This document shows, piece after piece, positions 4,683 to 64,000 of a DNA stretch of 64,000 nucleotides. The DNA lies in assembly GCA_964016885.1 (NCBI GenBank), contig OZ024743.1, positions 372,682,001-372,746,000 of the forward strand. Direction: 5' to 3'. Position 1 is the first letter of the stretch. Each line of letters begins with the position of its first letter. Origin of the DNA: Eledone cirrhosa. Taxonomy: Eukaryota. The notes under the pieces were generated by a model. That model was not told the DNA's origin. It ran no database searches and saw only the letters and a program-made list of their open reading frames with translations. Made by a program: the position numbers and the translations under genes.

Positions 4683-4873
4683 CATAGAGGTAAAAGGATG
4701 ATTAACATGGATAAGCGATATAATAGGGTTTTAATCATCTTTTTACCTGTTATTACTACTCCAAGAACTGTTTCATCTTCTACTGACTGCCCCAATCCAT
4801 CATACTAATTCAACCTGATAATAAAACTTTATTTTATTTTGTTTCTAATAAGTTTTTCTAATTTCCTTTTCAG

Positions 4874-5108
4874 TTTGTTTCTCATCCAAATTGTCAACAG
4901 TTACTAGCATCGAAATGGTACGAAGGATTAGGCAACTTCCGACGAAAGCCTGCCATTAAACAACTCACAATTGCCTTATCAGTCTGTTTCCTCTTCCCAG
5001 TACTTAGTGTAATCTATATGGTTGCTCCTCATAGTAAATTTGGTAAACTCTGCCGGAAACCTTTTATTAAATTTTTACTTCATGCCTCATCTTATATAAG
5101 TTTCTTAG
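4874..5108 (+). CDS. TRPC: TRPC exon w2 (pre-S1 elbow and start of S1)
   Basis: tttcag|TTT ... TTAG|gtaagt. Translates FVSHPNCQQLLASKWYEGLGNFRRK..KPFIKFLLHASSYISFL. Phase 0 to 1. Not in the ORF track. Confidence 0.95.
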
Positions 5109-5863
5109 GTAAGTATGTTTCATTTAATACATTTTTCTATTTAAAATGAATTTGATATTCATGGGCATGTGGTTAGAATGTCTCAGGAAAGAACCACAAA
5201 AATGTGGTTGGTGTAAGGATGAGCATCCAGTTGTAGAAACCAAGCCAAAATCAGTTCCGTATGAGCCATAATCACTTGACCTGGCATTTCTCACAAAAGG
5301 ACAACTTTTCTAACCTATGTTAGCATGGAAAAATGGGCATTAAACTGTAATGATGATATATACACAACAGGCTTCCCACACAGTCACCATCAATGAAATT
5401 TCACTCTCATTGCTCAGCCGAGACTGTAGTAGAAGTCACTTGACTATGATGCCATACAGTGGAACTGAACCTGAAAAACCATGTGGTTGCAAAACCAACT
5501 TTTTTATTCTCACAGTATACATGTTACTATAAACAGATTACTAATGTATCTATTCTTAAACATGCACTGGATATCTAGTTTTAACATTCCAGCAAATTCT
5601 TGGTTGATGATTTCATGTTAATGGAACCGTGGATCCTCTAAACTAAAAGAAAACCTGAAATATAAGCTAAAATTATTTTAGTTTATTTTTTTGCTTGTTT
5701 TCTTTTTGCTGTTTGTTTGTTGTTTTTGTTGGATTATTTTCTCTGAATAAGTAAAACAATCTCTACACCTCTAAATCTTTCAGAAATTATCTAGAATCAA
5801 GGCATAAAATGTTTGACGAAAGCTTTTAAATACTTGATAATATATAATATTTTAATATAATGA

Positions 5864-6578: not shown

Positions 6579-6711
6579 AAATATTAATAATGTTATTATA
6601 ATATTATTATTATTTTATATAAAACTCCCAAATGCATTTTTCTCATTGTTTTTCTATAAATTTATATATGTCATTAAATAGTTTCTTTTTCTTTTTACTT
6701 TATCATTTTAG

Positions 6712-6846
6712 GTCTCCTCATCATGGTTTCTCAAAGAATAGAGAATCCATTATTTTTCCTGTTTCCATTTCAAGAAACAAAAAAGAAAGAGTTGAGAGGA
6801 AAACCTGCCACTATAGTAGAAATGATGATTCTATCCTATGTTGTTG
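6712..6846 (+). CDS. TRPC: TRPC exon w3 (S1 end to S2 start)
   Basis: ttttag|GT ... GTTG|gtaaat. Translates (G)LLIMVSQRIENPLFFLFPFQETKKKELRGKPATIVEMMILSYVV. Phase 1 to 1, in frame with neighbours. Confidence 0.9.
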
Positions 6847-6885
6847 GTAAATTATTTTATATTCCTTTGGTTGTTTAAATATATA

Positions 6886-7042: not shown

Positions 7043-7307
7043 TATTTATGTTAATTATGATTATGGTTGGTGATGTCAGAAAATAATCAAATGTTTTCAT
7101 CATAATTTGATCATCATCATCCTCATCATTATCATCATTAAGATCATCATCATCATCATTATCATCATCATCATCATCATTATTATTATCGTCGTTTTAA
7201 CATCCGCCTTCCTTGCTAGCAAGGGATGGATGGGTCTACATAGACCAAGTCAATACTCAAGAAAAGCTACTGACCTCCCAGACAGGCCAGAGATTGGCAT
7301 TTCACTT

Positions 7308-8107
7308 ATGCACAGTCTCTCATGCTACAGAGTTCACAGGAAAGATGCACAGTCTCTCATGCTACAGAGTTCACAGGAAAGATGCACAGTCTCTCATGCT
7401 ACAGAGTTCACAGGAAAGATGCATCAGTCTCTCATGCTACAGAGTTCACAGGAAAGATGCATCAGTCTCTCATGCTACAGAGTTCACAGGAAAGATGCAT
7501 CAGTCTCTCATGCTACAGAGTTCACAGGAAAGATGCATCAGTCTCTCATGCTACAGAGTTCACAGGAAAGATGCATCAGTCTCTCATGCTACAGAGTTCA
7601 CAGGAAAGATGCACAGTCTCTCATGCTACAGAGTTCACAGGAAAGATGCATCAGTCTCTCATGCTACAGAGTTCACAGGAAAGATGCATCAGTCTCTCAT
7701 GCTACAGAGTTCACAGGAAAGATGCATCAGTCTCTCATGCTACAGAGTTCACAGGAAAGATGCATCAGTCTCTCATGCTACAGAGTTCACAGGAAAGATG
7801 CATCAGTCTCTCATGCTACAGAGTTCACAGGAAAGATGCATCAGTCTCTCATGCTACAGAGTTCACAGGAAAGATGCATCAGTCTCTCATGCTACAGAGT
7901 TCACAGGAAAGATGCATCAGTCTCTCATGCTACAGAGTTCACAGGAAAGATGCATCAGTCTCTCATGCTACAGAGTTCACAGGAAAGATGCATCAGGCTC
8001 TCATGCTACAGAGTTCACAGGAAAGATGCATCAGTCTCTCATGCTACAGAGTTCACAGGAAAGATGCACAGTCTCTCATGCTACAGAGTTCACAGGAAAG
8101 ATGCATC
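7308..8107. repeat. 38-bp minisatellite, ~21 copies
   Basis: Unit atgcatcagtctctcatgctacagagttcacaggaaag with 37-bp variants. Explains the three overlapping repetitive ORFs. Confidence 0.97.
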
Positions 8108-8737
8108 AAGTGCGTCAACCCTTGTTTTGTAAGCTTTCTACAGCCAGATACCCTTCCTATCACCAATCACTTTACAGCATATACCAAGTGCATTTATTGT
8201 GTAGATCACCAACATCACCAACGCTAGGGAAGCCATCATGTTCTTTATATGACTGAAGGGTCCTCCTGATCCTTTGTTTGGCAAGCTTTCTACAACTGGA
8301 TGCTTTCCTATCACTAACCACTTTACAGAGTGTACTGGGTGTATTTACTGTGTAAATCCCAAACATTAATTACTTTGTGGATTGGCACCGGACAAATATT
8401 TAGCAGTATTTGTTTCTGGTTAAAAGTCTAGCAAAGTCAACTTTATCATTCATCCTTCTAAAGTTAATAAACTAACGTACCAGTAAAGTACTGGGGTTGA
8501 TATAATCGACTTTCCCCTTTCCACACAATTGCTGGCTTTGTGCCTAAATTAGAAATCATCATCAGTGACATCACCATCATCATCACCATCATAATCATCA
8601 GCAACATCATCATCATCATCATCAGCAACGTCACCATCATCATCATCAGTGACATCACCATCATCACCATCAGCGACATCACCATCATCATCATCATTAT
8701 TGTTGTTGTTGTTATATTTATTATTTCCTACTTTCAG

Positions 8738-8877
8738 GTTTAATATGGTCTGAGATAAAACAAATATGGATGCAGGGAGCCCTAGAGTACATCCATGATA
8801 TGTGGAACATATTGGATTTTGTCACCAATTCCCTCTACATGGCCACATTTACACTACGTCTTCTGGCTTTCATTGAA
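8738..8877 (+). CDS. TRPC: TRPC exon w4 (S2-S3)
   Basis: tttcag|GT ... GAA|gtaaat. Translates (G)LIWSEIKQIWMQGALEYIHDMWNILDFVTNSLYMATFTLRLLAFIE. Phase 1 to 0. Confidence 0.95.
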
Positions 8878-8909
8878 GTAAATAAGCATTTGATATTATT
8901 ATTGTATAA

Positions 8910-11668: not shown

Positions 11669-11804
11669 GACTAGCATCCAAAATTAAGAGTCTTTTCCTA
11701 CTATATCAAGCGCAAAACTAATAATATATTTATTCATTGTACTGTGTCATTTGCTTTCTTATTTCTGTTTGGCTTTTATATTATATCTTTAATATCTATT
11801 ACAG

Positions 11805-12154
11805 GTATATAATGAAAGAGCTGCACATAACCCATATGCTTTTGAAGAACGCAAACATTGGGATGCTTATGATCCAAACCTTATTGCCGAAGCTTTGTTT
11901 GCTGGTGCTAATATCTTCAGCTCCTTGAAGTTAATTTATATTTTCACGATAAATCCCCACCTGGGACCACTACAGATCTCCTTGGGGCGTATGGTTGCAG
12001 ATATTGTCAAATTTATATCAGTATATTTCCTCGTACTCTTCTCCTTTGCCTGTGGCTTGAACCATCTTTACTGGTACTACGCTGCACTCCGCGCAGAAGA
12101 ATGTGAAGCAGGAATTACACATTCATGTGATATCAAATACAGAAGTTTTGCAAA
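11805..12154 (+). CDS. TRPC: TRPC exon w5 (S4, S4-S5 linker, S5, extracellular Cys pair)
   Basis: ttacag|GTA ... GCAAA|gtaagt. Translates [86 protein letters not shown]......SC..YRSFA. Ends in phase 2. Confidence 0.95.
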
Positions 12155-23981: not shown

Positions 23982-24199
23982 GATACCCCAAGTACTTCAA
24001 TAATTCAAAAGACTAAATATATTGTTAAGTCTAAGTAGATTAAAATCTATATCTAAAAATGTTATGATCTGTACTGAACAAGAGCCATGATCTGAACTCA
24101 AGTTTTACTGAATTCATTCCAAGAAAATCATACCTATATCTTTGTTGTATATTTATGTTTGTTGTACAATTACTATTGTCTGTTTCCTTTATTTTCCAG

Positions 24200-24395
24200 T
24201 CTTTTTGAGATCTTGCAGAGTTTATATTGGGCAATTTATGGCCTTGTTGATCTAGAACACGCTCATTTGGATGAACCACACAAACTGACAGAACTGATAG
24301 GCAAATTGATGTTTGGCAGTTACAGTATGATAGCCATTATTATTCTGCTTAACTTACTTATCGCTATGATGAGCAATTCCTACCAACTCATCTAT
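24200..24395 (+). CDS. TRPC: TRPC pore exon w6A (pore helix, filter, S6); alternative copy 1
   Basis: ttccag|T ... TAT|gtaaga, 196 nt, phase 2 to 0. Translates LFEILQSLYWAIYGLVDLEHAHLDEPHKLTELIGKLMFGSYSMIAIIILLNLLIAMMSNSYQLIY. Confidence 0.93.
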
Positions 24396-25870
24396 GTAAG
24401 ACTCATTCCTTTGTATACAAAATTCTTTATTCATTATATTTTCATCAATATATATATATTCACCCTTGTAATTTTAATGAATTTTGTAATTCGTTTTTGT
24501 GTGTGAAATTTTTCAGAAAAGAAAATTATGACCTTCTATCTATAACTGTAATAGATTTAACAATTTCTTTTGAACAGGCAACAAGTATATTCTTTTCTCT
24601 TTCAGCATAGATAACTCGGAAAATAATACATGAAAAAATAATTCTCTAACAACCTGGACCTTCACAGCTTCATCCGTTCATCACTTCCAGAACATTCCAA
24701 AATACCGGTATTCGTTAAAAATAGTCGTTCATTTATCAAGGAATTTTAATCTTGTGTTGAATTTTTCTTTGTTAAAATTTTATACAGATTTTCAGACCTG
24801 ACCATTTGGCAAATTCCTCAATAATCTGCTTCTTCTTTACAAACTTCTGCACTATTTCTTAATTTTTTAAATCTTTTTTTGATTTTAAATATATTTAGAA
24901 TATAAAACTAGTTAGTTAGTTAATTAATCATAATTCTATGAAATAATAATATTTTAAATTTAAAAATGCTGAATAGAAAAAATTATATTTTCAAAAAAGG
25001 GTAGAAGAGAAATTAGTATTGTAGTTGAATTCTGGGAAACATATCTCTAATGAAACAAAAAAATAATATTCATTAAACGAAGAGAGAATGAAGGCTTCTG
25101 ATTCACACTTGATAAGAAGTCTGAATATTAATGTAGACAGATTAAATGACTATCACATATAATAGAACTACAATGATATGGGGTTGTTTTGAAAGAAACC
25201 ATGCTTATATATCATATATAACTATGTCACAGGTTTTCTAAAAATATAATATTGTACCAAATGGTACCCTGATGTCAGATGGTAAGAGCAATACTTGGGT
25301 GTACTAACTTAATTTTTTTTTTTTTTGTGTGGGAAGGAGGAGTTTTATTTTGTTTTGTCTTTGATGAGTGCCAGAGTTCTAGACAGGATGAACTGAGCAT
25401 AGGGGTTAGGGCAAAGCCTAGGGTAGGGATGAATACAGTATAGGTGATGAGAAGAGGAAAGACAAATGAATCAAGAATGCCTAGCAAGCTCCAAAGAGCA
25501 GTGGCCATTGTAGTAATGGTAGACTGTGTGTCTATATAAGTCACCGGCTGGAGAGTGTCTAACCAATTGCTTTAATTTCTTTAATTATACACTAACTGAT
25601 GATATTTCATTCTAAATGAAGATCATAAAGTAACCATATAATCTTTCCCAGAAAATAAAGAATATAATTATTTCTGGAAGTTTTCCCAAATATTCTATTA
25701 TATTACTTTGGGAAGCTGACTAAAAAATAATCGTATTTCTATTGACCAAAACATTTTTCAATTTTCAGACTACTAAGAGCAAATATTTAGAACAGACATC
25801 ACAGATATAAATCAGTTTCAATAATCTTAGAAATACTGAAGATTCCTGTAACTTTTTCTTTTCTTTCCAG

Positions 25871-26066
25871 TCTTTTTGAAATCTTGCAGAGTTTATATTG
25901 GGCTTTGTATGGCCTTATAGAACTGGACAACGCTCACTTGGACGAACCACACAAATTCACAGAGCTGGTTGGCAAACTGATGTTTGGAAGTTACAGTATG
26001 ATAGCAATCGTTGTGTTGCTCAATTTGCTCATTGCTATGATGTCACTATCATATCAAATGATATCT
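25871..26066 (+). CDS. TRPC: TRPC pore exon w6B; alternative copy 2
   Basis: ttccag|T ... TCT|gtaaga, 196 nt. Translates LFEILQSLYWALYGLIELDNAHLDEPHKFTELVGKLMFGSYSMIAIVVLLNLLIAMMSLSYQMIS. Confidence 0.92.
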
Positions 26067-26124
26067 GTAAGAAAGTCTTTTACTTTCTCCTTATTGATCA
26101 TGATTTATTCTGCTTCTTTTGCAG

Positions 26125-26320
26125 TCTTTTTGAGATATTGCAGAGCTTATATTGGGCAATTTATGGTCTTATTGATCTGGAAGATGCCCATCTGAAAGAA
26201 AATCACCATTTCACTGAGCTCATTGGGAAACTGATGTTTGGTAGTTACAGTTTGATAGCCATAATTGTACTTCTGAACATGCTAATCGCTATGATGAGCA
26301 ACTCATACCAAATTATATCT
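26125..26320 (+). CDS. TRPC: TRPC pore exon w6C; alternative copy 3
   Basis: ttgcag|T ... TCT|gtaagg, 196 nt. Translates LFEILQSLYWAIYGLIDLEDAHLKENHHFTELIGKLMFGSYSLIAIIVLLNMLIAMMSNSYQIIS. Confidence 0.93.
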
Positions 26321-29300
26321 GTAAGGAATACAATTTAAGTCTGCTCTACCTAAGTTACAGCCTACTGATATAAAGTTCTGGCAAGACGAATACAATCCAC
26401 ACTGTTCTATATAGTTTTTTCCTCATGGTACGCATATATAAACCATGTTCATTTCTATAGTTAGCTGCAATATAGAAACTGTATATTAACATTCATATAT
26501 TTGACAGTAGAAGATAGATATATGTTTCGAGCCATATGCAATCCTAGCTATTTAGTTATTGGGCCTTTAAAATAACAACCCGTGCTCTACTACAGAGTTA
26601 GTATACAATTGTTTTTGTTCAAGACACCTCCAGTATAGTTATTTATTTTCATCACTAAATATTTTTAGTCTCCTTTAACCTTTTCACAATAAACTTCTGC
26701 CCACACTTCAAAAAATATTTTTCTTTTACTTTAAAACTATTACAATTGGGAAATCTTAGAAATTAAGAATTTTATGCCTTAATTCTAAACAACAAAGTCT
26801 TAAATTTTTTCTTATTAATTTGTTAGTATTTCTGATAAAATTAAAAATATTGTTTTCTGGAGAATTTAAAAAAAAATACAGAAATTGAAAATCTAGGGAA
26901 TTAGAAATTTTTTTGTCTTCAAGAATTCTAAATAATGAAGTTTTTAAATTTTTTTATTAATTTGGAGACTTTAGAGATAATATTTTTGATGATTCTTTTC
27001 TTTCTTTTCACGGAGAAACTAATAGAATTCTTTTAAAGTAATTTTTCAAGCAATATGTGAACAATACATTTGTTTAAACTCTGCTTGTTTTTACCTGGGT
27101 TTGGAATTTTGGCATAAATGAATCCAAACAAATATTTTCAGCTGCATTAATTTCTTAATGTAAACCAGTCAACCATGAAATAGAAGTTAAACTTATCTTC
27201 AGTGAGGTAGGATATGTCAAATGGAATTATATACCAAGCCTTAACATTTGGTTCAATATTCATTTGTAGGTTTTAAAAGCTTGAGGGACATGTAACTGCA
27301 AAAATAGTTGGAGCACAACCCTCCCAGTGTTTTAGACAGCACCTTCCTTATCACACAAATGTTGTTTTTTTTTAACCCCAAATTAAACTCTACTCCCTTC
27401 ATCAACCATTTGCAAGCCCCTTTACTTATAAATGCATTGTCTATGGCATTATCCTACACATGTATTTCAAGGGACCTCAGATCCACAATTTCTTTTCTTA
27501 TAATTTATTCCTTTGTGAGTCTGGCAACACCCTGATTATATCGGCTGATTCATTATCTTAAATTAACTGATATTTCATTACAGTTTGTACTTTTTTGCTC
27601 AGCTTCTCAGAGAATCTTCAGAAGTTCTTGTACAACTCTACCATTTCATATGAAACATACCTTGAACGATTTCAGTTATCTTAAACTGGTTTGTTTGAAG
27701 TATCCACAATAAATTCTTTATCTGTAGAGCATAAATGTTGGTGTTGAATCACTTACCACTATTCCATGGGCAGTATAGTTAGAATCATATATCCTATATC
27801 AATGTTATCTGTTGAGAGAAATGTTCAAAATGCCAACCGATGAACTTTAATGTCAAAATACTTTGTATTAACATGAAACATCAGTTGATAACAAAGAATA
27901 TTCTGATTAGACTTTCAATGGAATGTCTGCATAAGATATCAGATATTGTTCTATCTGGGAAAGAAAAAGAAAATATGTGTCCTATTGTAGAAATCAGTTG
28001 TCTAAAATAGTTTTAATAAAAGACACAATCTACAATTTTCGAATAATTTTGAAAATAATCAAAGAAATAGAGAGATTGAGTAATAGAATTAATTTTCTTT
28101 ACTAAGCCTGTGTTTGGAGGATAACATAGCAAAGGTTCTTACATAAATTTATAATGAGAGGTTTTTAAATAAATATAAACACTTTAACCCTTTTTCACAG
28201 CCATATTTTTAACGAAAGACACTGCCTATGATTTTAAAATAATTTTTTTAATATTTAAGAAAATAAAGAGTTCTAATTAAAAAAAAAAAAATTATTCTTA
28301 CTATCAAGCTGGTGTTTGGAGCATAACTTAAGAAAAGTTCTTACATAGAGTTATGATGAAAGTTTTTAGATAAATATAAATGTTTGGTATCAAAAGGTTT
28401 AACTGTAGCTAGACTTTGTACAATAAAAGAAAGGTTCTTTTTAATAACAGTACATGAAAAGGACAATACTAGTGAGTGTGAAAAAGTTACAGCTCAAACC
28501 TATGTAGGTAGGTTTGGCTGGCCTCTTACAAAGTAATATTTCATAGATTTCTCAGATAATCCTATCATGAAAAGCAACTTGTGTTTTGCTCAGTCGAAGA
28601 ATCTAACACAGCCTTATGATGTAAATTTTTTCCAGTTTTTAAATAAGGCTATTGTTTAAAAAAGAAAAAAGTTACACTAGTCGTTTCATTGCCATATTTT
28701 AAATGAAATACTACACTGCATATGTATTTCTATTCATTTAAGAATAATTTGAAGGAGGTTTAATCAAATATGTAATGTTTTCATGATAAAGTTGGTATTT
28801 GGTGCATAACTTTACAAATTGTTCTGAAACAAGATCATCTCAGACAGTTGTAATTTGAATACAAACAGAGCTGACTAGGGTTAGGGTTAGGGCTAAGGAT
28901 AGAGTTACTATTAGGGTCATGGTGTCTCGAGTAGGACAGGTATGATGATAGGAAGGGGTTAATGAGGACATATGGAGATATAAGATATAACCTTTTTTCT
29001 TATTTTTAGTTTTTTTTTTGTTTTTAGAATAGGTGATTTTAATAATTTAATGTAATTTATCTTGTTTGAAAAGAGAGCAACTCCAATTAAATATGAAAAT
29101 AGTTTCAAAATTTTGGAAGTCTTTGTAAAATTTCTAGTTGATGTAAAACTTTTCACACTTTCCCAACCTTCTTCCTTATGTGTTTGCACTATCTGTGAGT
29201 CTGCCAGAGCTGTATAGAAGTAAGCTGTAAAAGTCGGTTTGTTGCAAATGCTTTCTTTTTTCATTCAGCTTTTGATTCTTTCTACATAATGCTATAACCC

Positions 29301-48330: not shown

Positions 48331-48525
48331 AGCCAAGCTGATGAAGAATGGAAATTTGCTCGTTCCCGACTCTGGATAAGTTACTTTCTAGAAGGCGCAA
48401 CTGTTCCTCCACCTTTTAACATCTTTCCCAGTCCAAAGTCTTTTACAAATGTTGTTGCATCCATCAAAAATCTACTCCTGGCTCACACAGCAGAACAGAA
48501 GACAGCCAAATGGAAGAATGTTCGG
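48331..48525 (+). CDS. TRPC: TRPC exon w7 (TRP box and proline-rich TRP box 2)
   Basis: atttag|AGC ... CGG|gtaagt. Translates [38 protein letters not shown]..; EWKFAR is the TRPC signature. Phase 0 to 0. Confidence 0.96.
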
Positions 48526-49916
48526 GTAAGTCAATTCAACAAGACATTAACCCTAAAACTTCCTCTGATTCATCAAAGCAAAACCCTTTTTCAAAGTTTC
48601 TTATCTAAATAAAAACCTTCCATCATTATTTGATATGTCATATATACTTGTATATAAGCCAAGAAAAAAATCAATGGTAAAAATGCAGATTTTCAACAAC
48701 TTCAAAATTCTACGTAATGTGGTGCTAAAATATTTTCACTTCGGTTTACTTTGGAGGTGAACATTACACTAGTTTCACTTCAGAGGTGAAATTTGTATTT
48801 CCTATTGTTTTTATGTTTTGAGTCAATATGGTCTTCAAAATGTCCAGAAATTGGTAAAAAATCATTATATAATGGAGTTGTGAAACAAAAACTATACACT
48901 AAACAACACTTAAAACATTTTATATAAGAAATATTAAAACTTCATAAATATATTCTCCACTCATGAAGATTTCAAAACCACACCATCTAAGCATAATGTG
49001 TTGGTTAGCTGCCACAGCTTATAAACAGGATTTGGGTTTTTGCTTATTTCTCAAATATAAAATAGGGAGTTTGGCTTATATTCAAGTATATATGGTAAGC
49101 ACCATTTGTTAAGTTATGTTACAAATACCATCTTAATAATAAAATAATTAATAATTTTAGTAAATCCCTCCAAATTCTTCATTAATTAATAAAAATATGA
49201 ATATTGTAACAAAAGAGTTAATGGAAAAATCTGTTTTGATGTTGTTGTAGTAGTTCTGGTCAGCTCTGGTCAATTCTGGTTCATCTTGGCTAGCTCTGGT
49301 CAGCCCTTGCTGTATAACATCAGCTATGTTCAACCTTAGATCACCTTGATTAGCTCTGGTCAGCCATAGTCAGCTCTTGTAAGCTTTGGTTGACGCTGTC
49401 AGCTCTGGTTAGCTATAGTTAGCCATGGTTAGCTATAAGTATTAATGTGGTGTGGTAAATAAATATATACATATACACCAGGTTTGAACACAGGAACCAA
49501 ACTCCCATAGTCACTGCCTCCGTCTTACTCACTCTTTCACTATTATAAGCAAATGGGTGCCCCATGGCCTCAGCAGACAGAATAGGGAAGGTGTTTCCTT
49601 GGAGGGTAGTGAGGGAGATGTGTTGGAAGAGCCATTCCAGTTTGTGAGGCTCACACCTGCGAGTAGCCAACTCTGTGCCGATGGTAGTGAGTAGGAAGGT
49701 GGTCCTCGTGCCATGAACACCAGAATTCTCCATTACTATGGGCTCGACCACACATCTCTCAGAGAGAGACCAATTATTATTTCATTGTTTCGTAATTTCA
49801 TTGCTTCATTAGTTCCCTATTTCATTGCCTCATTCCTCTTTTAATATTGTTTCATTATTATTTCATTATTGTTTCGTTATTATTTCATTATCATTTCTTC
49901 CATTTCTATTCTTCAG

Positions 49917-49958
49917 TCCACTGTCACAAACATTAACAAGAGAGAAATTCGTTACCAG
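49917..49958 (+). CDS. TRPC: TRPC micro-exon w8 (42 nt, start of rib helix / CIRB-like region)
   Basis: Long pyrimidine tract, cttcag|TCC ... CAG|gtaaaa. Translates STVTNINKREIRYQ, which joins VVIRKLISRY to recreate the TRPC YQ-x-V-x-R-x-L-x-x-RY motif. Confidence 0.85.
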
Positions 49959-50007
49959 GTAAAATTCTATATTTATTATTTCTTTGAGAAAGTCAGTTGT
50001 GTGTATA

Positions 50008-51217: not shown

Positions 51218-51453
51218 TTAAGTTACTATCTTAGTAATGAAATAATTGATAATTATAGTAAATCCATCAAAATTCTTTGTTAACTAATTGAAATAGAGTG
51301 TATTTCATTAGAAATTCGGTCATGAAAGAGTTAACAGAGAAAATGACCATCAATTGCTGTTGTTGTATTTTGATATAATCAAAAAATGTGTGCTGTTTCT
51401 TGAAGTAGTTTCTGTTTGTTTATTTGTTACCTGGTTATCTTTCTCTTGTACAG

Positions 51454-51732
51454 GTGGTTATTCGTAAGTTAATTAGTCGTTACATCATGAATAAACAACG
51501 ACCACAGAAGGATGAGATTGTCTCTCAGGATGACGTTAACGAACTTAAACAAGATATCTCAACATTCCGTTTTGAACTGATGCAAGTGTTGAACACTAAC
51601 GGCTTTGAAACCCCTGTTATACATCAAGCGAAAACCTCGAGTAAGAAAGACAGAATGTGGAAGAACCTTTCAGTGGCAACTGATACTAATCCAGAACAAC
51701 TTTTGGAAGAAGCTGGTTTGGTTGACGACTAG
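51454..51732 (+). CDS. TRPC: TRPC terminal coding exon w9 (rib helix and C-terminal coiled coil)
   Basis: gtacag|GTG. Translates VVIRKLISRYIMNKQR..VSQDDVNELKQDISTFRFELMQVL..AGLVDD*; ELKQDIS.FRFE is the TRPC coiled-coil motif. Confidence 0.9.
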   Translation: MVIRKLISRYIMNKQRPQKDEIVSQDDVNELKQDISTFRFELMQVLNTNGFETPVIHQAKTSSKKDRMWKNLSVATDTNPEQLLEEAGLVDD

Positions 51733-59270: not shown

Positions 59271-60685
59271 TTATATATATATATATATATGTATGCATGT
59301 ATGTATGTATGTATGTATGTATCCCAGTACAACCTGTCCCATGGTCGGGTCGTTGGCGACTAAACTGGCAACCCCACCAAGGTTTCTTGGTGAGGAGGGT
59401 GACTTTGGACATCCTGCAGGACTAAAAACAAAACCTGTCAAAGGGCAAAGGAGCTCTTAAGAGTCAATGGCCATCCAAAATCACTGGGAGAGATGACCCC
59501 TTAGCCTTTGTCAAGGCAGAATTCTAGGAGAAGGAAAACTCTGATATAACACCTGCAACCCTGATGGTATCCAATGATGTTGACTTGTTCTTCTTTTTGG
59601 TAAATATCATCTTGGTTAAGAGAGTGGGACTGGCTTTGTGCAGTGCCTTTGCTCACTATAAAAGCTTCACGGCACAGACATTTCTTTATATCTGGAGATC
59701 TCTCTGCACTTGTCCTCACATGGTACCATGGACCCAGCACTATGTGTCGATAATTGTCACAAGTGTAGTGTTTGTACCAGAGATTTCAAGTCGCTGGCTG
59801 GACTAAAAAGTCACACTCGTTCAGCGCATCGGTAGGGGTTCTCCTACATGGATATAAAGTAGTGGCCATACTCGAAAACGAGTTGGCAGCCACCATGTAT
59901 GTATATAAAGACATGAAGTACAGATGTAAAGTATCATAACAAGTGTTTTTCAATTGGCAGTTATTAGTGTTAAATAACATAAATAATGTAGTTATATTTA
60001 TAATTAATTAATGTTAATATAATTGTTTTATTAACAGTCAAATATTCAATAATATAGTAGTTATATTTAAAATTAATTAGTCAAGGATACAGTTGTTATA
60101 TTTACAGCCAAATATCATTGATAATACAGTTATATATTGTTTGTAGTTTTTTAGCAGAAATTTTGGTTTGATGTATGTTGGATGTGTGATTAGTGTGAGG
60201 TTGATGTGATCAACATTAGGGGTGCAATTTCTCCAATGCATCAGTATCGAATGAATAAACTAATAAGGAAACAAAACTGCTATTACATATTTATTTGTTA
60301 CTATGGAATACAACGAATCCATGTGACGAACAATAAAGTATTTTGGAGGGCTGTAAATATATTTGGTATAGAGAAATTTATCAGTAAGATATGTTGTATA
60401 AAGTTTTTAGGGAAAGATTAAATACATGACTGTAGAGAGGTGAAGAAATTAGGGAAGATTACCTCAGTGTAGTGTCACACATGTTATTAGTGACCATCTA
60501 AAATGGCTGCTCTGCTATCACAGTCATGATCTGTCGTCAGTAATGATAATAATAAAAATTGTGTACAGTTCTCAGGTGCACTACAATTCATCAAAGGTGC
60601 ATGTATAGTACATAGAATAATGTACAAATGTCAGGAAAGTGAACAGTGTACGAGTCATTATATATACAAGAAAGATAAGAGCCAA

Positions 60686-63600
60686 GATGTTATATTTACA
60701 GTGAACAATATAGGTATTATGTTTACAGTAGACAATATAGTTATTATGTTTACAGTGAACAATATAGATGTTATGTTTACAGTGAACAATATAGGTATTA
60801 TGTTTACAGTGAACAATATAGATGTTATGTTTACAATGAACAATATAGGTATTATGTTTACAGTAAACAATATAGTTATTATGTTTACAGTGAACAATAT
60901 AGATGTTATGTTTACAGTGAACAATATAGGTATTATGTTTACAGTGAACAATATAGATGTTATATTTACAGTGAACAATATAGTTATGTTTACAGTAAAC
61001 AATATAGATGTTATGTTTACAATGAACAATATAGGTATTATGTTTACAGTAAACAATATAGTTATTATGTTTACAGTGAACAATATAGATGTTATGTTTA
61101 CAGTGAACAATATAGTTATTATGTTTACAGTGAACAATATAGTTATGTTTACAGTGAACAATATAGATGTTATGTTTACAGTAAACAATATATATGTTAT
61201 GTTTACAGTGAACAATATAGATGTTATGTTTACAGTAAACAATATATATGTTATGTTTACAGTGAACAATATAGGTATTATGTTTACAGTGAACAATATA
61301 GATGTTATGTTTACAGTAAACAATATATATGTTATGTTTACAGTGAACAATATAGGTGTTATGTTTACAGTGAACAATATAGTTATTATGTTTACAGTGA
61401 ACAATATAGATGTTATGTTTACAGTGAACAATATATATGTTATGTTTACAGTGAACAATATAGTTATTATGTTTACAGTGAACAATATAGATGTTATGTT
61501 TACAGTAAACAATATAGGTATTATGTTTACAGTGAACAATATAGATGTTATGTTTACAGTGAACAATATAGGTATTATGTTTACAGTGAACAATATATAT
61601 GTTATGTTTACAGTGAACAATATAGATGTTATATTTACAGTGAACAATATAGGTATTATGTTTACAGTGAACAATATAGTTATGTTTACAGTGAACAATA
61701 TAGATGTTATGTTTACAGTAAACAATATATATGTTATGTTTACAGTGTACAATATAGATGTTATGTTTACAGTAAACAATATAGATGTTATGTTTACAGT
61801 AAACAATATAGATGTTATGTTTACAGTAAACAATATAGATGTTATGTTTACAGTAAACAATATAGATGTTATGTTTACAGTAAACAATATAGGTATTATG
61901 TTTACAGTAAACAATATAGATGTTATGTTTACAGTAAACAATATAGGTATTATGTTTACAGTAAACAATATAGATGTTATGTTTACAGTAAACAATATAG
62001 ATGTTATGTTTACAGTAAACAATATAGATGTTATGTTTACAGTGAACAATATAGATGTTATATTTACAGTAAACAATATAGTTATGTTTACAGTAAACAA
62101 TATAGATGTTATGTTTACAGTAAACAATATAGATGTTATGTTTACAATGAACAATATAGATGTTATGTTTACAGTGAACAATATAGATGTTATGTTTACA
62201 GTAAACAATATAGATGTTATGTTTACAGTAAACAATATAGGTATTATGTTTACAGTAAACAATATAGATGTTATGTTTACAGTAAACAATATAGGTATTA
62301 TGTTTACAGTAAACAATATAGATGTTATGTTTACAGTAAACAATATAGATGTTATGTTTACAGTAAACAATATAGATGTTATGTTTACAGTAAACAATAT
62401 AGATGTTATGTTTACAATGAACAATATAGATGTTATGTTTACAGTGAACAATATAGATGTTATGTTTACAGTAAACAATATAGATGTTATGTTTACAGTA
62501 AACAATATAGGTATTATGTTTACAGTAAACAATATAGATGTTATGTTTACAGTAAACAATATAGGTATTATGTTTACAGTAAACAATATAGATGTTATGT
62601 TTACAGTAAACAATATAGATGTTATGTTTACAGTAAACAATATAGATGTTATGTTTACAGTAAACAATATAGATGTTATGTTTACAGTAAACAATATAGA
62701 TGTTATGTTTACAGTAAACAATATAGATGTTATGTTTACAATGAACAATATAGATGTTATGTTTACAGTGAACAATATAGATGTTATGTTTACAGTAAAC
62801 AATATAGATGTTATGTTTACAGTAAACAATATAGGTATTATGTTTACAGTAAACAATATAGATGTTATGTTTACAGTGAACAATATAGATGTTATGTTTA
62901 CAGTAAACAATATAGATGTTATGTTTACAGTAAACAATATAGATGTTATGTTTACAGTAAACAATATAGATGTTATGTTTACAGTGAACAATATATATGT
63001 TATATTTACAGTAAACAATATAGATGTTATATTTACAGTGAACAATATAGATGTTATGTTGACAGTAAACAATATATATGTTATGTTTACAGTGAACAAT
63101 ATAGATGTTATATTTACAGTAAACAATATAGATGTTATATTTACAGTAAACAATATAGTTGTTATGTTTGCAGTTAAATAATATAGTTGTTATATTTACA
63201 GTTAACAATATAGATGTTATGTTTACAATGAACAATATAGATGTTATGTTTACAGTGAACAATATAGATGTTATATTTACAGTAAACAATATAGATGTTA
63301 TGTTTACAGTGAACAATATAGATGTTATGTTTACAGTAAACAATATAGATGTTAAGTTTACTGTAAACAATATAGATGTTATGTTTACAGTGAACAATAT
63401 AGATGTTATATTTACAGTAAACAATATAGATGTTATGTTTACAGTAAACAATATATATGTTATGTTTACAGTGAACAATATAGATGTTATATTTACAGTA
63501 AACAATATAGATGTTATGTTTACAGTAAATAATATATATGTTATGTTTACAGTGAATAATATAGATGTTATGTTTACAGTGAACAATATAGATGTTATGT

Positions 63601-64000
63601 TTACAGTGAACAATATAGTTATATTTACAGTAAACAATATAGATGTTATATTTACAGTAAACAATATAGATGTTATATTTACAGTAAACAATATAGATGT
63701 TATGTTTACAGTAAACAATATATATGTTATATTTACAGTGAACAATATAGATGTTATATTAACAGTAAACAATATATATGTTATGTTTACAGTAAACAAT
63801 ATAGATGTTATATTTACAGTGAACAATATAGATGTTATATTTACAATAAACAATATATATGTTATATTTACAGTGAACAATATATATGTTATATTTACAG
63901 TGAACAATATATATGTTATATTTACAGTAAACAATATAGATGTTATGTTTACAGTAAACAATATAGATGTTATATTTACAGTGAACAATATATATGTTAT
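60686..64000. repeat. 27-bp minisatellite/satellite, >120 copies, runs off the window end
   Basis: Unit gatgttatgtttacagtaaacaatata with variants (gtga, ggtatt, 24-bp deletion). Confidence 0.98.

Follow-up and report, generated by a model that had tools for sequence, protein, structure and literature searches.

Results

Gene structure

The window analyzed here, a 64,000-nt stretch of AT-rich animal DNA from the 3.0-Gb genome of Eledone cirrhosa (contig C4, 372682001-372746000), contains the greater part of a single TRPC gene, on the plus strand, and its exons are 84-97% identical to a TRP-gamma-like protein of Octopus sinensis (P0027, RefSeq isoform X3). Upstream exons located by tblastn at about 941-1456, 4871-5110, 6696-6848, and 8737-8886 (plus strand, as are all exons below) encode ankyrin repeats, the linker, and S1-S3, and the first coding exon, also found by tblastn, lies directly upstream of the window (L019:8702-9022). 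A constitutive exon at 11802..12154 (start approximate) covers the end of S3 to S5 and ends in phase 2 with the donor GTAAGT. Downstream of the pore region, a second constitutive exon, which encodes the TRP box EWKFAR, occupies 48331..48525, and the last exons lie at about 49911-49961 and 51451-51729 (tblastn). Precomputed Pfam annotations of P0006 and P0009 comprise ankyrin repeats (PF12796), TRP_2 (PF08344), and a six-helix ion-transport domain (PF00520), and the pore carries an LFW-type helix (LYW here) and the filter glycine G14. On these features, we identify the window gene as a TRPC channel gene that matches the trp-like gene of squid photoreceptors.

The squid-cluster protein P0033 and Mytilus proteins have a longer alternative C-terminus, branching at about 51640 of the window; an exon for a long C-terminus of the P0033 kind was found neither in the window nor in the following 60 kb. 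Long tandem-repeat tracts with spurious open frames occupy about 60500-64000 and 7200-8250, and there are many AT microsatellites besides. Five other TRP-family pore exons occur in the genome, at 37-48% identity (L004-L008; contigs C28, C3, C11, C25, and C3), each of them single-copy within about 1.5 kb on either side.

Three copies of the pore exon

Between the two constitutive exons, the pore exon is present three times on the plus strand: copy A at 24200..24395, copy B at 25871..26066, and copy C at 26125..26320. Each copy is 196 nt long and encodes 65 residues that run from the pore helix through the filter and turret to the gate end of S6. The three are equal in length and phase (2/0), are preceded by AG and followed by GTAAG, and are separated by introns of 1475 nt (A-B) and 58 nt (B-C). 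The interval that the earlier note had assigned to B proved to be the exact exon. A search with nhmmer recovered the three copies at E values of about 1e-62 and no fourth copy in the window, the next match having an E value of 1.7. Copy A is the version present in squid photoreceptor cDNA; it is 98% identical to Loligo forbesii O46129 over 65 columns.

Translation gives ...GLVDLEHAHLDEPHK...IAMMSNSYQ for A, ...GLIELDNAHLDEPHK...IAMMSLSYQ for B, and ...GLIDLEDAHLKENHH...IAMMSNSYQ for C, bearing out the earlier reading of a filter Asp in A and C, a filter Glu in B, and an Asn-to-Leu difference near the end of S6 in B. The Glu is codon 17 of B (GAA, 25920..25922; Asp in A and C), and the Leu lies in codons 58-59 (Ser-Leu, TCA CTA, 26043..26048; AGC AAY in A and C). 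Both residues also occur in RefSeq O. sinensis isoform X3 (P0027). Within 26043-26048, the Ser58 codon of B (TCA versus AGC) adjoins the Asn-to-Leu codon, and five to six bases have changed en bloc. Copy C differs from A in turret codons 20-28 (26183..26209) by H20D, D24K, P26N, and K28H; here K24 corresponds to K591 of TRPC5 and H28 to E595 of its EFTE motif. The turrets had been given as HLDEPHK in A and B and HLKENHH in C, which holds in the window, but the Pro-to-Asn change is found in the window only: the C turret reads HLKEPHH in RefSeq O. sinensis, O. vulgaris, and O. bimaculoides.

The copies agree pairwise at 148-155 of 195 nucleotides and 52-54 of 65 amino acids. Because their divergence amounts to a dS of about 1.3 and a dN of 0.10-0.16, they are old and represent neither chance nor an assembly echo. 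Their sequences indicate that each copy has long been kept coding.

Splicing of the three copies

We followed splicing in RNA contigs of related species, using 8 of 13 probable RNA runs aligned to 24100-26420 and leaving out the three high-share runs of organism D. Such contigs drop rare forms, and contig depth, although high over A in X1, X2, and X4, cannot rank exons. The loose contig ends preceding 24200, 25871, and 26125 match the end of exon 11802..12154, and those behind 24395, 26066, and 26320 match the start of exon 48331..48525. Copy A was spliced to both flanks in six of the eight runs (X1, X3, X4, X5, X7, and X11). Both joints of copy B appeared in two runs (X5 and X7) of a single study, and its 3' joint alone in X3, a run of a different study; all three runs are from organism B. 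For copy C, three runs (X3, X11, and X13) show both joints, and X5 and X7 show the 3' joint. Runs differed in which copies were spliced.

A joint between B and C was absent from the RNA contigs of all eight runs from related species, and the B-C intron was retained in contigs of X1, X2, X3, X5, and X7. In X13, one low-depth contig continues from A into nine letters that agree with the first bases of B or C, so exclusion may be leaky. Frame analysis showed that inclusion of A, B, or C alone keeps the frame into EWKFAR. Any double or triple inclusion runs into a stop after 6 nt of the second copy because the nine starting bases that the copies share (24200-24208, 25871-25879, and 26125-26133) contain a stop in the shifted frame, and skipping of all three copies leads to a stop in the next exon. 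The 58-nt B-C intron (26067..26124, plus strand) has branch-point-like motifs 31 and 25 nt before its acceptor, about 30-36 nt from the donor of B; it is likely too tight to splice, and the short distance from donor to motifs suggests steric exclusion.

The three O. sinensis RefSeq isoforms, X1, X2, and X3, differ inside this exon only. The locus thus has the marks of a mutually exclusive cluster: tandem exons of equal length and phase, single use between the same flanks (in relatives and in RefSeq X1-X3), and joint inclusion or skipping that is absent or non-productive. We consider it highly probable that A, B, and C are used mutually exclusively.

Unlike most of the A-B intron, the stretch immediately before B (25724..25870, plus strand) can be aligned in relatives (X1 and X2) and is a possible splicing-control region. 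It includes a possible cryptic acceptor near 25769. An RNA pairing analysis of 21 pairs of intron segments yielded one candidate duplex of -28.4 kcal/mol, a value that none of 100 shuffles reached; the predicted helix pairs 25807-25824 with 26091-26108 at probabilities mostly above 0.8, loops out B, and covers the branch-point region of C. A conserved docking-site/selector pairing was nevertheless rejected, as 17 of 434 window tiles match the energy of this duplex and, among the variants listed, all six variable paired positions in relatives break the pair. By structure prediction, the core helix around B may still form in Eledone cirrhosa.

Selection on the copies and losses of B

Compared with run X5, B carries 10 synonymous and 3 replacement substitutions (13/13 letters; binomial p 2e-5), A at least 8 synonymous and 1 replacement (9 of 11 letters; p 2e-5), and C 7 synonymous and 2 replacement (p 3e-4); the pattern is that of purifying selection acting on each of the three. 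E17 and L59 of B are unchanged relative to X5 and are fixed in the B copies of the window and O. sinensis at a dS of about 0.3.

In runs X1 and X4, which represent organism A in two studies, B is frameshifted by a one-base loss at 25896 of the window and meets a stop at codon 16; splicing of B was detected in none of the three runs of organism A. Proteins P0001, P0035, P0036, and P0002 contain a degenerate B-like stretch right before C, with Leu at or near position 59. At the protein level, P0001 has Ile at the donor position, where the frame of the window has Val, which would fit loss of the GT. Either the donor or the frame of B appears to be gone in proteins of the P0001 and P0002 types, and B was probably lost more than once. 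Because it is frameshifted in organism A and broken in the P0001- and P0002-type proteins, B seems to be dispensable in several coleoids. The Leu change is probably old, because Leu is also present in the B-like remnants of P0001, P0035, and P0036. These remnants have Thr at the place of Ser58, a possible intermediate. P0001 and P0033 share an identical C copy, and P0033 clusters with the Loligo protein; the triplication therefore probably predates the octopus-squid split.

Related proteins

The O. sinensis isoforms X1, X2, and X3 (XP_036364088, XP_036364090, and XP_036364091), named 'transient receptor potential-gamma protein-like', carry A, C, and B, respectively. In O. bimaculoides, A is found in isoform X1 and C in X2, the O. 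vulgaris model includes C, and no B isoform of O. bimaculoides is among the eight cluster members listed. The isoforms are thus already in RefSeq as automatic gene models with the same A, C, and B, from which the window differs at three residues in B and one in C (P26N). The trp-like protein of Loligo forbesii (O46129/CAA11261) belongs to the same gene lineage, in a cephalopod clade with 100% local support, and the cloned protein carries copy A only. Monk et al. (1996) reportedly cloned this trp-like gene from membranes of squid photoreceptors. According to excerpts of two papers, trp-like marks retinal photoreceptors in Loligo vulgaris (PMC9839350), and squid TRP transcripts occur in skin (PMC4564192). 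A search of literature, partly in excerpt and with most subscription journals outside its reach, found no account of alternative pore exons in cephalopod TRP or in TRP/TRPC channels.

An unrooted FastTree analysis of 65 proteins, which carries a long-branch warning, separated molluscs and nemerteans from the arthropod proteins of all three types (TRP, TRPL, and TRPgamma) and placed the cephalopod proteins as a clade inside the mollusc-nemertean group. The 'TRPgamma' label is best read as a best-hit name rather than as proof of one-to-one orthology. Drosophila TRPgamma (PDB 9VQQ) is the nearest structural relative by whole-protein sequence (E 2e-258), and TRPC5 and TRPC4 match the fold of the P0027 model (E 1e-42 to 1e-33), with the pore segment aligning to TRPC4/5 without gaps.

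Pore exon duplication outside cephalopods

RefSeq isoforms X1 and X2 of Mytilus edulis and of M. galloprovincialis swap two versions of the same 65-residue exon, as do X2 versus X3/X4 of M. trossulus, and the M. coruscus model P0079 chains both versions. Among the proteins of Mytilus and of a Mytilus-like contig (P0024, P0045, P0046, P0049, P0050, P0079, and P0021), position 59 is Ser and the gate Gln is replaced by Ile in one version. P0021 contains one copy out of frame, ten residues, and then the other copy, which at the protein level implies a spacer of about 28 nt. Two overlapping metagenome contigs, L010 (2-46 and 738-935) and L011 (6-122 and 818-1015), hold two copies about 690 nt apart that differ in S6; both copies are followed by GT, and the second is preceded by AG. 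The animal from which these contigs come probably adds another lineage to those with the duplication. Each of the clam, scallop, and gastropod proteins found shows a single exon version, and extra unannotated copies are possible. In a tree of the exon (37 rows, 66 columns), 5 of 33 branches were starred and coleoid monophyly was not rejected (p-AU 0.42). This tree is compatible with one or several origins of the mussel and coleoid duplications.

The filter site

The exon was aligned without gaps to residues 568-631 of human TRPC5. In this map, positions 17, 24, 28, 51, and 54 are N584, K591, E595, N618, and I621, and positions 58, 59, and 62 are N625, N626, and Q629; over matched ranges of equal length, position 17 is also E630 of TRPC3 and E687 of TRPC6. 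We take position 17 to be equivalent to Asp621 of Drosophila TRP. Excerpts of PMC7565274 describe N584, E630, and E687 as pore-facing Ca2+-permeability sites and Asp621 as the fly TRP site, and the N584 site of TRPC5 is sensitive because swaps there shift PCa/PNa 2- to 5.7-fold (PMC7565274). The earlier claim that the Asp-to-Glu difference of B falls on the Ca2+ site of the filter thus agrees with the alignment. For fly TRP, the literature search, partly in excerpt, returned a phototransduction paper with D621G and no account of an Asp621-to-Glu change.

Among 148 distinct non-coleoid pore peptides, which are search matches, arthropod-rich, and non-independent, position 17 is Asp in 96, Glu in 28, and Gly in 18; the 48 closest orthologues have Asp in 44, Glu in three, and Gly in one. 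The Asp-to-Glu change keeps the charge, and Glu, the residue that TRPC3 and TRPC6 use, is naturally common there. As in a selectivity-switching exon, the alternative exon encodes the filter and turret, but the charge of the filter ring stays the same.

The lower gate and S6

The lower gate of TRPC5 consists of I621, N625, and Q629 (excerpts of PMC7565274), with N625 as the constriction residue (excerpts of PMC12789093). The matching positions 54, 58, and 62 are Ile, Ser, and Gln in A, B, and C alike, and 144 of 155 peptides share the Ser at 58. According to the earlier note, B replaces the conserved gate-region Asn by Leu. The Leu is indeed present, but the gate Asn, N625, corresponds to position 58, which is Ser throughout; the change lies at N626, and none of I621, N625, and Q629 is affected. 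On an ideal helix, position 59 is about 100 degrees off the face formed by 54, 58, and 62, pore-facing assignments being made here from published residue numbers and an ideal helix wheel.

Position 59 in the 148 non-coleoid peptides is Asn in 125, His in 12, Ser in seven, Thr in three, and Leu in none, and 45 of the 48 closest orthologues have Asn and none Leu; Drosophila TRPgamma has His there, and Mytilus X2 has Ser. Leu59 is a true outlier and likely acts through packing. A literature search for TRPC work on N626, the S6 residue after the gate, found none. An alignment-based structure model (pLDDT 73) predicted a break in S6 at residues 623-626 around the Leu, which we set aside for its local pLDDT of 53, as we did a single-sequence model with a pLDDT of 41.

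The turret of copy C

The earlier note had ascribed an extra His and a charge reversal to the turret of C, leaving out H20D. At positions 20, 24, and 28, C and A contain the same three residues permuted (His to Asp, Asp to Lys, and Lys to His), and residues 17-28 comprise four acids and one Lys in each of A, B, and C, with three, two, and three His, respectively; in both loop charge and His count, C equals A. The Lys-to-His change at position 28 does hit the E595 site of TRPC5. E595 contributes to potentiation by protons and lanthanides. K28H could plausibly alter the response of C to pH or metals. In TRPC5, E595Q/E598Q raises PCa/PNa from 1.79 to 4.28 (excerpts of PMC7116371). Fatty-acid sensitivity maps outside this exon (excerpts of PMC6061713). 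Position 28 (window 25953-25955, for example) is Lys or His in coleoids and Glu in 35 of the 48 close orthologues; neither Lys nor His was found there in any of the 148 other peptides.

Distribution of the differences

Of the changes in B, those at positions 17 and 59 fall on the sites most fixed among the closest orthologues (Asp in 44 and Asn in 45 of 48). Across the exon, positions that vary between the copies have a mean family-wide entropy of 1.74 bits versus 0.60 bits for the rest (p = 8e-6), 8 of the 17 variable positions lie in a 14-residue loop (p = 0.006), and 2 of 11 named pore sites are changed. The general claim that the substitutions hit functional positions is therefore weak as judged from these counts: the variable positions are mostly variable in the family as well.

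Discussion

Our analysis suggests that the gene has three exclusive pore exons, two of which, B and C, have been modestly retuned with a measurable functional difference, an account we hold somewhat more readily than not. The gene likely makes three channel subunits. Exclusion would be doubly enforced, by a B-C intron too tight to splice and by the stop early in any second copy, and double-inclusion messages would decay. In B, a longer Glu ring at the filter mouth would slightly shift Ca2+ affinity or block and leave the channel Ca2+-permeable, and the Leu one residue past the gate Ser would alter open probability or kinetics via S6 packing rather than the plug itself. In C, an acid nearer the filter (D20) together with a His at the E595-equivalent site would change pH or metal modulation at the same net loop charge. 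Use of A, B, and C would be tissue-specific.

The main competitor, to which we give appreciably less credence, is that the three exons are mutually exclusive and functionally near-equivalent, with B a minor copy on its way out. The concentration of differences at family-variable sites (p = 8e-6), the equal loop charge of the three copies, their identical gate residues at 54, 58, and 62, and the frequency of a filter Glu (28/148) all count in its favour, and so do the defects of B in organism A and in the P0001- and P0002-type proteins. Near-equivalent copies would not, on the other hand, be expected to keep their own signatures across species, as A does at 98% identity between the window and Loligo and as B does with E17 and L59, both fixed in the window and O. 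sinensis at a dS of about 0.3; nor does near-equivalence sit well with an L59 that occurs in no other homologue and with spliced sets that differ between runs.

At the opposite extreme, B could rewrite both the filter and the gate constriction and so make a large switch in Ca2+ selectivity or gating of the kind seen in NALCN 15a/b or Cav3 12a/b, which we regard as unlikely. Position 17 is a known Ca2+ site, but Asp-to-Glu keeps the charge, unlike the E/K exchange of NALCN. L59 is unique and one residue from the gate, and a register shift of S6 could turn it inward, TRPC S6 gate conformations varying between structures (excerpts of PMC7116371); the gate Asn N625 is nonetheless position 58, a Ser in all copies, and position 59 points about 100 degrees away and accommodates His in TRPgamma and Ser in Mytilus X2. 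It is very improbable that B is a poorly conducting or dampening subunit, by analogy with TRPC1, in tetramers with A or C: TRPC1 offers a precedent in heteromers, B has been lost repeatedly, and its hydrophobic residue occupies an S6 site that is otherwise polar (N125, H12, S7, and T3 of 148), but purifying selection acts on B, and its gate and pore-helix residues are all retained. Least probable of all is that copy B of this genome represents a pseudoexon or an artefact of assembly, since, although B is broken in other coleoids and its splicing evidence comes from relatives, it has an open frame, intact AG and GT, in-frame joining, 10 synonymous against 3 replacement changes, and splicing in those relatives, and an assembly echo is excluded by the dS of about 1.3 between copies.

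Returning to three modestly retuned pore exons, we can sketch a broader and tentative picture, which may well prove wrong: a single coleoid gene could achieve by pore-exon swap the division of labour that flies get from TRP plus TRPL, with A retinal and with B and C, differing in Ca2+ permeability and in pH or metal sensitivity, serving other cells or heterotetramers, and the repeated duplication of the same exon in lophotrochozoans would reflect recurrent tuning. Ca2+ entry through TRP channels shapes light adaptation in flies. If the isoforms differ, splicing would in this gene exchange the complete pore module of a TRPC channel. Three natural pores on an identical scaffold offer a clean comparison of Asp and Glu at the TRPC filter, and they also probe the S6 residue after the gate (N626) and the E595 modulation site. 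Work on 'the' cephalopod TRP needs exon-level resolution.

In known TRPC and TRPL families, the filter residue varies between genes (N584, E630, and E687, with Gly in TRPL-type matches), whereas here it varies between exons. A TRPC channel is a tetramer of separate subunits. Duplicated, exclusive pore exons likewise exist in two other lophotrochozoan channels: exons 15a/15b of NALCN, which encode EEEE versus EKEE in molluscs and annelids (excerpts of PMC4436565), and exons 12a/12b of Lymnaea Cav3, which are mutually exclusive and have a measured effect on Na+/Ca2+ preference (excerpts of PMC10017353). Both are four-domain channels in which one pore quarter is swapped with a change of charge. 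The octopus TRPC gene differs from them in having three copies of an exon that comprises the pore helix, the filter, and all of S6, and in keeping the filter charge. Exclusive pore exons as such are thus already known from NALCN and Cav3, and what appears to be new here is the three-way swap of a whole TRPC pore module.
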